From IMG/VR virus record IMGVR_UViG_2923307698_000008: a stretch of 49,166 bases of DNA; one strand, given 5' to 3'. Below, piece by piece: positions 39,001 through 42,000 of this stretch. Origin of the DNA: a virus (lineage: Duplodnaviria > Heunggongvirae > Uroviricota > Caudoviricetes). Positions within the stretch are counted from its first letter, which is position 1. Each line of letters opens with the position of its first letter. The position numbers are program-made.

Positions 39001-42000
39001 CAAAGCTCCTGTAAAAATTTTTCCCCGGATTTGCCGTTGTCGTAGCTGTCATGCAACACGCTCATGACATCAGACACGGTGACGATAATCACGCTGCGCC
39101 CCTTCGCCATCAGCCGGTTACCCATCGCCGCTGCAAGGTGATTTTTCCCGGTGCCGGTTTTACCGCTGAACACAAAATTCGTGCACCCGGTCATCAGTTC
39201 GTCAGCTATGGATTTGGCCTGGCTCAGCGCGTATTTTTGCCCGTCGTTCTGCACCTGATAATTCGCAAACGAGCATTTGCTGTGCAGAGGCTGGATGCCC
39301 GAACGATTCAGGATTTTTTCCACCCGCAACTGGTGATTCTGGCGGTTAATCTCCTCGCTGCGTTTTCGTCCTTCAGCAAGTTGCCATTCCCGCCACTCCT
39401 CCACCGTCCGGTACGGTGGAACCGACGCCTGTGGTGCAAGTCTGCGAATACGTTCAAGAACCCCGGCTGCCGCAATGTTTTTCATGCCACATCACCCCCT
39501 GAATCCCGGCGGAATTTCGGTATCCGGTTCAGAAATATGATTCACACAACGCTGGTTGTTCGTGCCGCTTACCGGGAGCAACCAGGGGTTTTCAAAATTC
39601 CGGTCCGGCCCAAAAAACGTCGTCGCTCGCTGAACAAATTCCGTTCCCGCTTTCCCGGTCGCCGCCAGGTATCTCGCGTAACGCCTCACACCATCCAGCA
39701 TGGTCTCTGGTGGCACCCCCTCGCGCAATCTGGCCTTCCAGGCACTGAAAGCGGATTTCTTCGGGTTTGCCCCAGCACGCAACGGGTATTCCCGCCAGAC
39801 CTGTTCGAACACATCCGGATAATCCACTCGTCCCACAGACTGCCCGGTGCTTTCCGGGACTACCCGATCGGCTTCCCGCTGAATGGCGGAATCGGCTTCA
39901 GGCTGCTGCAGTTGGTGTGATTGCTCCGACCCTGCGGTCATCACCTGCTGCACAGCGCCCGAATCGGCTTTCAGCGCATACGCTGAATCGGCTTCCGGTG
40001 TCGTGCCTGCTGGCTGACCAGGATTGACGGTCTGAACATCCCCTGCCTGGTTCGTGGTGTTTTTTTTGCCATGAACCATAGTGTTTTTGTCCTGTTCCTG
40101 TTCTTTCTCCTGCTCCTGTTCCTGTTCTTGGCTTCGAAGCCCCTTAAAAGCCCCTTCGAAGCCCCTTACCGAATTTCGGCTATTATTCCGCCTCACATCC
40201 AGATGGAAATCCGTTTTATATCTGTCGTAAAACACTGACAGAAAAGCGTTTTCAGGTAATGATGCATACTCATTCCTGACACCTGCACAACGGTTATCGC
40301 CAGGCTTCAACGTTTCCCCAACCTGCCAGGCTGCCATTTCATGGACCCAGACCATCTCTGCATCATGGTCATAGCTACAAAAACCAGCTTCAACAGCCCT
40401 TTTAAGCCCCTTTGAAGCCCCTTCCAGACCAAGCCCGGTTTCATGAGCAAGGTATAAAACTGGCAGGTAATACAAACCCAGCATATTTGCGTGAGGGGAT
40501 GTCATCAGGTAAAAAGCAACAACTTGCGCTTCTGCACCCGCCTTTCTAAGTTCTCTCCCCGTTTCTCCCAGCCAGAATCGCGGAGAAACTTTTGCGTAAT
40601 CACGCATGGCTACCTCATCTGGTGCCGAACCTTCCTCCGGATATAATCTGTGGTTCCCAATCGACAGAACCAGAGGAGGTTCGACATGTATTTTTTGAAA
40701 AGCCTTTATCAGGCTCATGTATTAAATGTTGCAGCAACAAACCGCTGGTGTAACAGCCCCGAAATGCTCCCGGATTACAGAGCCTGGCTGCGCGCCGAAA
40801 CATACCTTCGTCTCGACATATTGATTAGCGAACTTCAAAAAGAGACTGCATCCATTCATAACCTTCAGGGTATCGACGCTGTTCGCATTCTGGTATCGCG
40901 CCATAGTGCTCTCTCAATAATTGAAGTGCGTCATCTCTCTTTTTCTGAACTGATTTTCTTGCTTCAACCAGCTCTGGAATCAGCGAATATCCCACCGGAA
41001 GTGATCCAATACCCACCTCATGTTGACGAGCAGTTACAAGATGTGCCATACAACCAGCGTGCTGGATTGACTCCCTGCTCAGAGGCTGAATGGGATCACT
41101 CTCTGCTGAAAAAATACCAAGATTTGTATAATCCTCAATAAGCCCGGCACACGCTTCTGCATCAGCCAGCTTTATTCTGGTTTCCTTGCGCTGTTCTCTG
41201 GCTGACAAACGCCAGAGCAGCGCATTAGCTTTATGTATCAACCACTCTGCCAGCTCCACATCAGATAAACCGCCACGCCAGATGTGCGGACTGTTTTCGT
41301 AAACGCTCAGTGTCAATTTTTTGTCATTACTCATATTTATTACCCAATTAATGCACAGCCAGAGTGTTTCCTGCCGGGCCACCACGATTCATCTGATCGA
41401 ACAGAACGATCGCTGATGCAACGAAATCATCAATATCTTTCACCAGCCGTTCCTTCGTCTCTACCAACTCCCGAAAATAAGCGGAACTGTGGCTGCGCAT
41501 TCGGGCCACCAGCGGAGGCGGCATCGCTTTTTCGATCGCTGGTAACAACGCCTGAATTTTTTTAACCGCATCAGGAGTGTCTTTCTCCACCCAGCGGAAA
41601 ATTTTCTGAGTATTGCGAGCCATGGCTTCCGGATGGCTGTCGTCATACAGTTCCGGGAACGTCATTCCCAGCTCGAAATACGCTTTGGTAATTTTCGCAG
41701 CCGGTACTTTTTCGCCGTCCGGATGCGCCCAGGCATTCATCGCCATGCGGATGTGTTCATGCTTGATTTTCATGAATCAACTCCGGCGCATTTGATGTGT
41801 TAACCTTACATCCAACAGGTAAACCGTCGGTTGGGTTAGGATAAATATCTGGGCGGATTTCATGCGGGGTAACTTCCCACTTCATTAGTTGGCATAACGG
41901 AATTACCTGCTTTGGGGGAACGCCAAAGCTAAACCATTGCCAAACAGTCTGTTGAGCGACCCCCATATAACGACCTATTTCAGCCTGAGTGTATTTCTGC

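Follow-up and report, generated by a model that had tools for sequence, protein, structure and literature searches.

Candidate lambda-type replication origin marked by 11-bp-phased iterons within the initiator gene of an Escherichia coli O157:H7 prophage

The DNA analysed here is the 49,166-bp virus record IMGVR_UViG_2923307698_000008 from IMG/VR, a lambdoid prophage of E. coli O157:H7, which in its full length is referred to below as the window. A replication initiator gene lies on its minus strand at 39492–40607, with YdaT-like, Cro-like and repressor-like genes upstream and a gene for a DnaC-like AAA+ helicase loader directly downstream (38739–39485, minus strand; Pfam IstB_IS21 and Bac_DnaA, PHROG 50, PRK12377 with 509 bits, DnaC with 299 bits). 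The gene occupies the initiator slot of a lambdoid early operon. Its product is a replisome-organizer-like winged-helix protein, and the DnaC-like loader is presumed to be its partner. Two clusters of a short DNA repeat with an 11-bp period lie within the coding sequence, and it is these clusters, proposed here as the iterons of a replication origin, that form the subject of this report.

The preliminary description of this DNA had placed the repeats in an open reading frame (ORF) at 39492–40718, which would encode 408 amino acids, but this is the longest possible reading. The true product is probably 371 amino acids long, because the homologues, PHROG 1701 and RefSeq (in prophages that are identical or nearly so) all begin at the ATG at 40605–40607. 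This codon, which is preceded by GAGGT, is M38 of the long ORF. The homologues all start with MRDY, and the matches to PHROG 1701 and PHROG 3729 begin at residue 38 of the long ORF; the gene call draws on these matches, the ORF list, RefSeq and an AlphaFold model. The in-frame upstream extension (40608–40718, minus strand) overlaps the start of the divergent ECs1072-family gene, no homologue reaches into it, and it is probably untranslated.

The protein is laid out as an N-terminal winged helix (amino acids 1–140), a disordered linker (amino acids ~141–255) that includes a Glu-Gln (EQ) tract, and a C-terminal domain whose end resembles the tail of DnaT. The AlphaFold model covered residues 1–173, used 50 homologues and had a pLDDT of 82, being confident for residues 5–140. 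Its elements follow in the order helix–strand–helix–helix–strand–strand, which is that of a winged helix, while residues 143–162 have a pLDDT below 50 and the EQ tract is also disordered. The N-domain is accordingly described here as a predicted winged helix of the phage replisome-organizer type. In this model, site A (see below) would fall in the third helix (amino acids 60–73), the usual recognition helix. Against a viral structure library, the top match was an uncharacterized protein, and the next ones were labelled 'replisome organizer', 'replisome organiser N-terminal domain' and 'replication initiator'. No Pfam family, the lambda O replication protein model included, was found in the initiator protein at E ≤ 0.01, and neither it nor five relatives gave a Phage_rep_org_N or DnaD-like match. 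PHROG places the protein as 'DnaD-like helicase loader / replication initiation protein' (PHROG 1701 itself being labelled 'DnaD-like helicase loader'), and the name 'DNA replication protein O' on relatives is a depositor annotation. The N-domain family comprises 4,089 clusters at 50% identity (E ≤ 1e-3), so that a large family of about 4,100 clusters outside Pfam has its DNA-binding N-domain defined here.

The repeat unit is the 9-mer AAGCCCCTT on the plus strand, or AAGGGGCTT on the coding strand. Five exact copies start at 40137, 40148, 40159, 40404 and 40415, and within each cluster their spacing is invariably 11 bp from start to start, which is about one helical turn. All five are confined to the two clusters, within 290 bp, with no further exact copy in the rest of the window; matches with one mismatch beyond the cluster region are at chance level (16 in total against 11.6 expected). 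This window-wide count excludes chance clustering of the repeats.

Site A (40404–40423, minus strand) consists of two exact iterons at gene offsets +184 and +195, which encode E-G-A-S-K-G-L within the predicted recognition helix (amino acids 60–73). Inspection of the sequence revealed a degenerate third unit (40394–40402, minus strand) that matches at 7 of 9 positions. Site B (40137–40167, minus strand), separated from site A by 256 bp, consists of three exact iterons at offsets +440, +451 and +462, which fall in three reading frames (R-G-F, E-G-A and K-G-L) within a disordered segment of the protein directly before the EQ linker. A palindrome search identified a half-site after site B (40130–40135, minus strand; GAAGCC on the coding strand, GGCTTC on the plus strand), which provides Ser159. 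The earlier claim of five or more iteron copies in two clusters within the initiator coding sequence is thus confirmed, with both clusters inside the corrected coding sequence. The 10-mer (A/G)AAGCCCCTT in which that claim was framed holds for four of the five copies and fails at 40404, where T precedes. A repeat finder, Tandem Repeats Finder (TRF), detects an 11-bp array at 40397–40423 and a period-6 tract at 40090–40127. A G-quadruplex formed by the GGGG runs was also considered and rejected: each cluster has merely two or three such runs, and their strand flips among relatives.

Conservation was assessed in phages of Shigella, Klebsiella, Acinetobacter, Ralstonia and E. coli together with 79 species-level genome loci from Gamma- and Betaproteobacteria. 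The repeat is present at two fixed gene offsets in these relatives, at +184/+195 for site A and at about +428 to +462 for site B, and is always 11-bp phased. The density of the exact word was 23.9 per kb at site A and 11.4 per kb at site B, compared to 0.053 per kb in the flanks (396 kb). Codon use was compared over 84 sequences, whose proteins share a median of 58% identity pairwise and whose GC content is 39–68%. At 63 conserved codons elsewhere in the alignment the normalised synonymous-codon entropy was 0.85, but it fell to 0.20 under site A and to 0.28 under site B (Mann–Whitney p = 3e-5 and 7e-5, respectively). At site A the codons used are GAA (100%), GGG (97%), GCT (81%), AAG (100%), GGG (85%) and CTT (87%), and at site B they are CCT (92%), AAG (100%) and CCC (89%). 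The codon for Ser159 is AGC in 76 of 76 relatives, and that for Q160 is CAA in 82%.

The word is kept even where the peptide changes. At site B most relatives carry AAGCCCCTT on the coding strand, encoding APSKPL, while the enterobacterial clade that includes the window carries AAGGGGCTT there, encoding GA(S/F)KGL; the centre of site B is CCC in 66 relatives vs GGG in 16. The site B peptide is free to change because it sits in a disordered segment. What is conserved is AAG-(G/C)3-CTT, in which GGG or CCC predominates and GGC/GCC intermediates account for ~10%. Some relatives have non-coding copies of the iteron upstream of the gene. Frozen codons, units read in three frames, the switch of peptide and the non-coding copies together argue that the repeats are under DNA-level selection that is independent of the encoded peptide. 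With their fixed positions, they are conserved at the DNA level and not as codon-level protein repeats; the outcome named beforehand as refuting the idea, repeats of the codon-level kind that relatives do not keep as DNA, was looked for and not found. In E. coli strain War (L002; NZ_CP074717.1, 1845–1875), site A has three exact iterons instead of two. This 11-bp gain frameshifts the initiator gene, which RefSeq calls a pseudogene, and it follows that the units slip as DNA repeats.

Among the upstream copies, a third small cluster at offsets −38 to −16 is found in seven Acinetobacter phages or prophages (L007, L098, L100, L108, L111, L113 and L131), where it covers the ribosome-binding region just before the initiator start codon; its position suggests autoregulation in that clade. 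One further relative (L155) has additional iteron clusters at −913/−902 and −669 to −647.

Beside site B lies a (GAACAG)n microsatellite (40089–40130, minus strand), which reads (CTGTTC)n on the plus strand, encodes the QEQEQEQEKEQEQD linker and is 83% purine on the coding strand. TRF assigns 6.3 copies to its period-6 tract, which encodes QEQEQEQEKEQEQ; TRF and translation both confirm the earlier statement that the (CTGTTC)n tract encodes an EQ linker. An SQEQEQ tract is found family-wide, with a codon entropy of 0.90, the same as background, and by its codon use it is conserved as peptide and not as DNA. Relatives have anywhere from 2 to about 16 EQ units. E. coli prophages whose N-domains are 96–100% identical to that of the window differ, in frame, in the length of the tract (SQEQEQEQEKEQEQDK at 16 loci, SQEQEQEKEQEQDK at 15 and a longer form at one), and the predicted in-frame expansion or contraction is therefore seen as length variation among near-identical prophages. 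What the microsatellite specifies is a protein linker, whose length changes by slippage. The linker is coded beside the iterons, and the codon entropy of the microsatellite gives no sign of a role in the origin as a DNA element. A conserved DNA element in the EQ tract was rejected as its codons vary freely and Glu codons largely account for its low GC3. An 11-bp repeat in an ORF cannot vary in copy number without a frameshift, as in strain War, whereas the adjacent 6-bp repeat varies freely.

A natural exchange of domains bears on which part of the protein reads the repeats. The C-terminal module (about 39492–40087, minus strand) has ~96% DNA identity to the E. coli phages Tritos, Evi and vB_EcoS-689R5, the protein identity of this half being 94%, and the module break between the N and C halves lies at ~40087. 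No homology between the window N-domain and the Tritos-type N-domain was found by hhalign. In the Tritos-type N-halves the repeat is CGTGAC, with four copies in each of two clusters that lie 260 bp apart. Each type of N-domain goes with a repeat of its own, in the same two-cluster layout. This is the pattern that an N-domain binding the repeats would produce, as it does in lambdoid O proteins. We infer from these sequence comparisons that the N-domain reads the repeats.

Two observations concern the linkers of these proteins. In Tritos and Evi (L170/L172; 2100–2441) the second CGTGAC cluster adjoins (TCTTTATCTGTA)3, a 12-bp tandem that encodes a TDKD linker. The linker of the C-module of the window (39867–39998) holds four copies of GAATCGGCTT, arranged as a 36-nt repeat pair 96 bp apart, which encode (E/K)ADS(A/G) peptide repeats and match the extended iteron GAAGCCCCTTC at 8 of 11 bases. 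These repeats are not N-domain-specific because the Tritos-type phages share them, and in an E. coli 28RC1 prophage (L001) the protein is shorter by 8 amino acids in this segment.

We consider it probable (about 0.7) that the repeats are the initiator-binding iterons of a lambda-type replication origin inside the initiator gene. Initiator binding, DNA unwinding, helicase recruitment and origin firing are the steps that we infer. Expression of the early operon would yield the initiator, and at sites A (40404–40423) and B (40137–40167) several N-domains would load as neighbours along the same helix face. The loaded N-domains would probably bridge or wrap the DNA between the sites, 256 bp apart, and their loading would strain the adjacent AT-rich DNA (40214–40273 or 40047–40106). 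The C-terminal domain, held on its flexible EQ-rich linker, would then recruit host DnaB via the phage DnaC-like loader (38739–39485). In this scheme the origin would comprise the two iteron clusters and the flanking AT-rich DNA.

Site B lies between the two stretches of the gene that are richest in AT, and both are candidate DNA-unwinding elements on the basis of their composition. The gene's lowest-GC 60 bp, at 40214–40273 (33% GC), lies between the sites and adjoins site B. The second lowest, at 40047–40106 (40% GC), is the alternative candidate; it lies across site B from the first and takes in the A8 run as well as some of the EQ tract. A GC dip of 9–11 points at +360 to +400 is seen family-wide. 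A 12-pair hairpin with a T-run on the plus strand, antisense to the gene, also occurs at 40048–40078, after the EQ tract at the start of the C-module. Hairpin/T-run sites of this kind are no commoner than in shuffled sequence, the promoter-like and terminator-like sites of the gene are as frequent as chance would give, and an Rfam search of 38.5–42.5 kb found nothing.

The next gene could be called in 65 relatives. It encodes a DnaB helicase in 20, a DnaC/IstB-like loader in 17 and a lambda-P-like protein in one (38/65). In E. coli DEF2 (L004) and in L170–L172, the initiator or its C-half occurs without a DnaC-like gene and is followed by a DUF977 or LygF gene. The phage-encoded loader appears dispensable because some prophages carry the initiator or its C-half with no DnaC-like gene downstream.

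The same word was also found outside the recognizable family. A search of IMG/VR for the exact tandem pair AAGGGGCTTNNAAGGGGCTT returned at least 120 loci. Among the 120 matches listed, 78 are in or beside a detectable N-domain homologue and 41 are without one. Most of these 41 lie inside other initiator-like ORFs of 28–38% GC, starting MAKRFTDTEKW… or MSYRFTNTDKW… (IMG/VR contigs L176–L293, e.g. L188 and L271). In this AT-rich family the 9-mer forms two 11-bp-phased clusters, at +47/+58 and +345/+356 or at +175 to +197 and +368 to +390, and a dipeptide-repeat linker (DK, MD, GK/GN, NS or IQ) comes directly after the second cluster. By hhalign the AT-rich family had no homology to the window N-domain beyond the iteron-encoded peptide; it had no Pfam match, and its PHROG matches were weak 'replication initiation' ones only. 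A model of the family has its secondary-structure elements in the same order as the window N-domain, and on the evidence of these models the word seems to be common to a deep superfamily over very different hosts.

A more far-reaching proposal, which we hold tentatively and at well under even odds, is that AAG-(G/C)3-CTT on an 11-bp period is a 'frozen' iteron of thousands of phage initiators, in hosts of 28–68% GC and in at least two sequence-dissimilar families. The word may always lie inside the gene, just before a dipeptide-repeat linker, and the reason for its freezing may be self-reference, as the binding site is part of the very sequence that codes for the initiator. With site A in the predicted recognition helix, protein and site could therefore not drift apart as they do in lambda-like phages. 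If this is true, an origin specificity common to unrelated prophages would allow cross-activation or interference between co-resident prophages, and one DNA word would suffice to find the origins throughout a large unannotated phage class.

Several results weigh against an origin whose iterons are bound by the N-domain. The conserved peptide EGAxKGL confounds site A, where only codon choice argues for selection on the DNA. Only a few loci (L125, L142, L161 and L163) have sites A and B that changed in concert; taken overall, the covariation of site variants within genomes was not significant and is unconvincing (mean distance 1.15 vs 1.31). GC3 at the GC dip is only mildly depressed, partly reflecting Glu codon usage and amino-acid composition, and DnaA boxes are at chance level, with none above it. 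Finally, the word is present in an initiator-like family of no detectable similarity, and the binder could in principle be other than the N-domain.

The strongest of the alternatives, which we nevertheless regard as unlikely, is that the repeats bind the initiator or another early protein for regulation only, by blocking transcription, limiting translation or handcuffing for copy control, and that the real origin is elsewhere. The extra copies over the ribosome-binding region of the Acinetobacter relatives (−38, −27) resemble autoregulation, and the unwinding element is only a candidate, a GC dip with a mild GC3 depression. Regulation and origin function can coexist, however, and the absence of the exact word elsewhere in the window leaves no other cluster of this iteron to serve as origin. 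The two-cluster layout in the gene is also maintained whichever helicase or loader comes next, and the characterised relatives by design, lambda O and SPP1 G38P, have their origin in the initiator gene.

There is a slighter chance that the repeats are read by another factor, a host or phage protein, or that they are conserved junctions promoting recombination between replication modules. Another factor would account for the word in the sequence-dissimilar initiator-like genes of AT-rich phages, but the predicted order of secondary-structure elements is unchanged in this second family, and there is no host factor common to hosts of 28–68% GC. More directly, the repeat becomes CGTGAC when only the N-half is swapped and the C-half remains ~96% identical. 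Site B and the linker do lie exactly at the exchange point of the N and C modules, as a recombination junction would, yet the Tritos-type phages recombined there without sharing either the word or the EQ tract. That the repeats are codon-level echoes of a repeated EGAxKGL peptide, or a chance cluster, with no DNA function is hardly credible: both window clusters do encode EGA(S/F)KGL in one common frame, but neighbouring units use three frames, most relatives have the complementary word at site B and with it the peptide APSKPL, synonymous codon choice is frozen nowhere but under the repeats, and there are non-coding copies too.

Iterons in initiator genes are well known as a kind, from lambda O/ori, SPP1 G38P/oriL and RepA_N plasmids. 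The preliminary description had likened the locus to lambda, with its origin iterons inside O, and this likeness is supported by the gene slot, the winged-helix N-domain and the change of repeat with the N-domain swap. As at ori-lambda, the initiator gene holds direct repeats where its DNA-binding N-domain adjoins the helicase-recruiting C-domain, next to AT-rich, strand-asymmetric DNA and with a flexible linker encoded at the origin. Both genes also precede the loader gene in a lambdoid early operon, and in both the N-half and its repeats swap as one specificity module. Lambda has four adjacent iterons of ~19 bp, whereas the unit in the window has a 9-bp core and an 11-bp period and forms two clusters 256 bp apart. 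The window protein has no sequence relationship to O, its presumed partner is a DnaC-like AAA+ loader and not lambda P, and it carries a DnaT-like tail at its C-terminus.

The Firmicutes replisome organizers (SPP1 G38P; Phage_rep_org_N class) share the N-terminal winged helix, followed by a low-complexity linker and then by a helicase or loader gene. In SPP1 the origin oriL lies inside the organizer's own gene 38. The window family differs in having no Pfam sequence match to these organizers and in its Proteobacteria hosts, and the iteron word and bipartite 11-bp-phased layout are not those described for SPP1. A further comparison is with the Tritos, Evi and vB_EcoS-689R5 initiators, which have the same C-half and two clusters ~260 bp apart in the N-half, the second beside a tandem-repeat linker, but differ in an unrelated N-domain sequence, the CGTGAC repeat, a TDKD linker in place of EQ and no DnaC-like gene downstream.

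The likeness to RepA_N plasmid initiators (PDB 4pta/4pt7) is that of a generic winged helix only, with CRP/FNR domains scoring higher, and the window family was not found as a plasmid replicon. A role as plasmid replicon found no support in the PLSDB search, which gave ten hits. The one that was inspected, H71, proved to be a chromosomal/prophage contig assigned to plasmids by mistake; judged by record size, the rest seem to be megaplasmids, records as large as chromosomes or records that include prophages, and the hits are uninformative.

The similarity to E. coli DnaT is limited to the last ~24 residues; neither the remainder of the protein nor its proposed role in binding the origin is related to DnaT. 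The DnaT-like tail (39495–39566, minus strand; NCBIfam PRK02854, residues 385–408 of the long ORF) corresponds to the last 24 codons (…SEPDTEIPPGFRG). Its SEPDxxIPPGFRG sequence resembles the DnaT C-terminus, and the PDB chains 6aep, 2ru8 and 9zbt match the tail only. Some database records name homologues 'primosomal protein I', an identity that was rejected for the protein as a whole, since PRK02854 scores 17.7 bits against a cut-off of 201 and covers only these last 24 residues.

Neither Pfam nor the literature searched yielded this initiator family, its 9-bp word or its bipartite layout with 11-bp phasing. Searches of full-text literature for the 9-mer, the 11-mer and the tandem forms returned only primers and unrelated sequences, and no literature on this initiator family was found, the retrieved work being concerned with lambda, Stx-phage and SPP1.

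The 659 bases at 40060–40718 are present in 476 of 5,426 complete E. coli genomes, with at least 99% identity in 434 of them. The locus thus offers a concrete, testable candidate origin for a prophage type in ~9% of complete E. coli genomes, mostly O157:H7. The initiator module is also present in the Shiga-toxin phages 75/02 Stx and POCJ13; in Shiga-toxin phages, phage replication is expected to increase toxin-gene dosage. The DNA word combined with the codon-freezing analysis can locate origins in prophages whose initiators are labelled 'hypothetical' or 'DNA-binding protein' by annotation pipelines.

Two minor features lie beyond the initiator gene. Between the YdaT-like gene and the initiator, two antisense ORFs overlap, one at 40686–41141 (plus strand), named 'ECs1072 family phage-associated protein' in RefSeq, and one at 40825–41385 (minus strand), which matches PHROG 8304 (E = 5e-119). 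Substitutions against a relative of ~88% identity are flat over the codon positions in both frames. Further on, beside the repressor-like gene of the immunity region, a RelB-like antitoxin and a RelE/ParE-like toxin are encoded as a pair at 42567–43045 (plus strand; RefSeq, strain EC4115).

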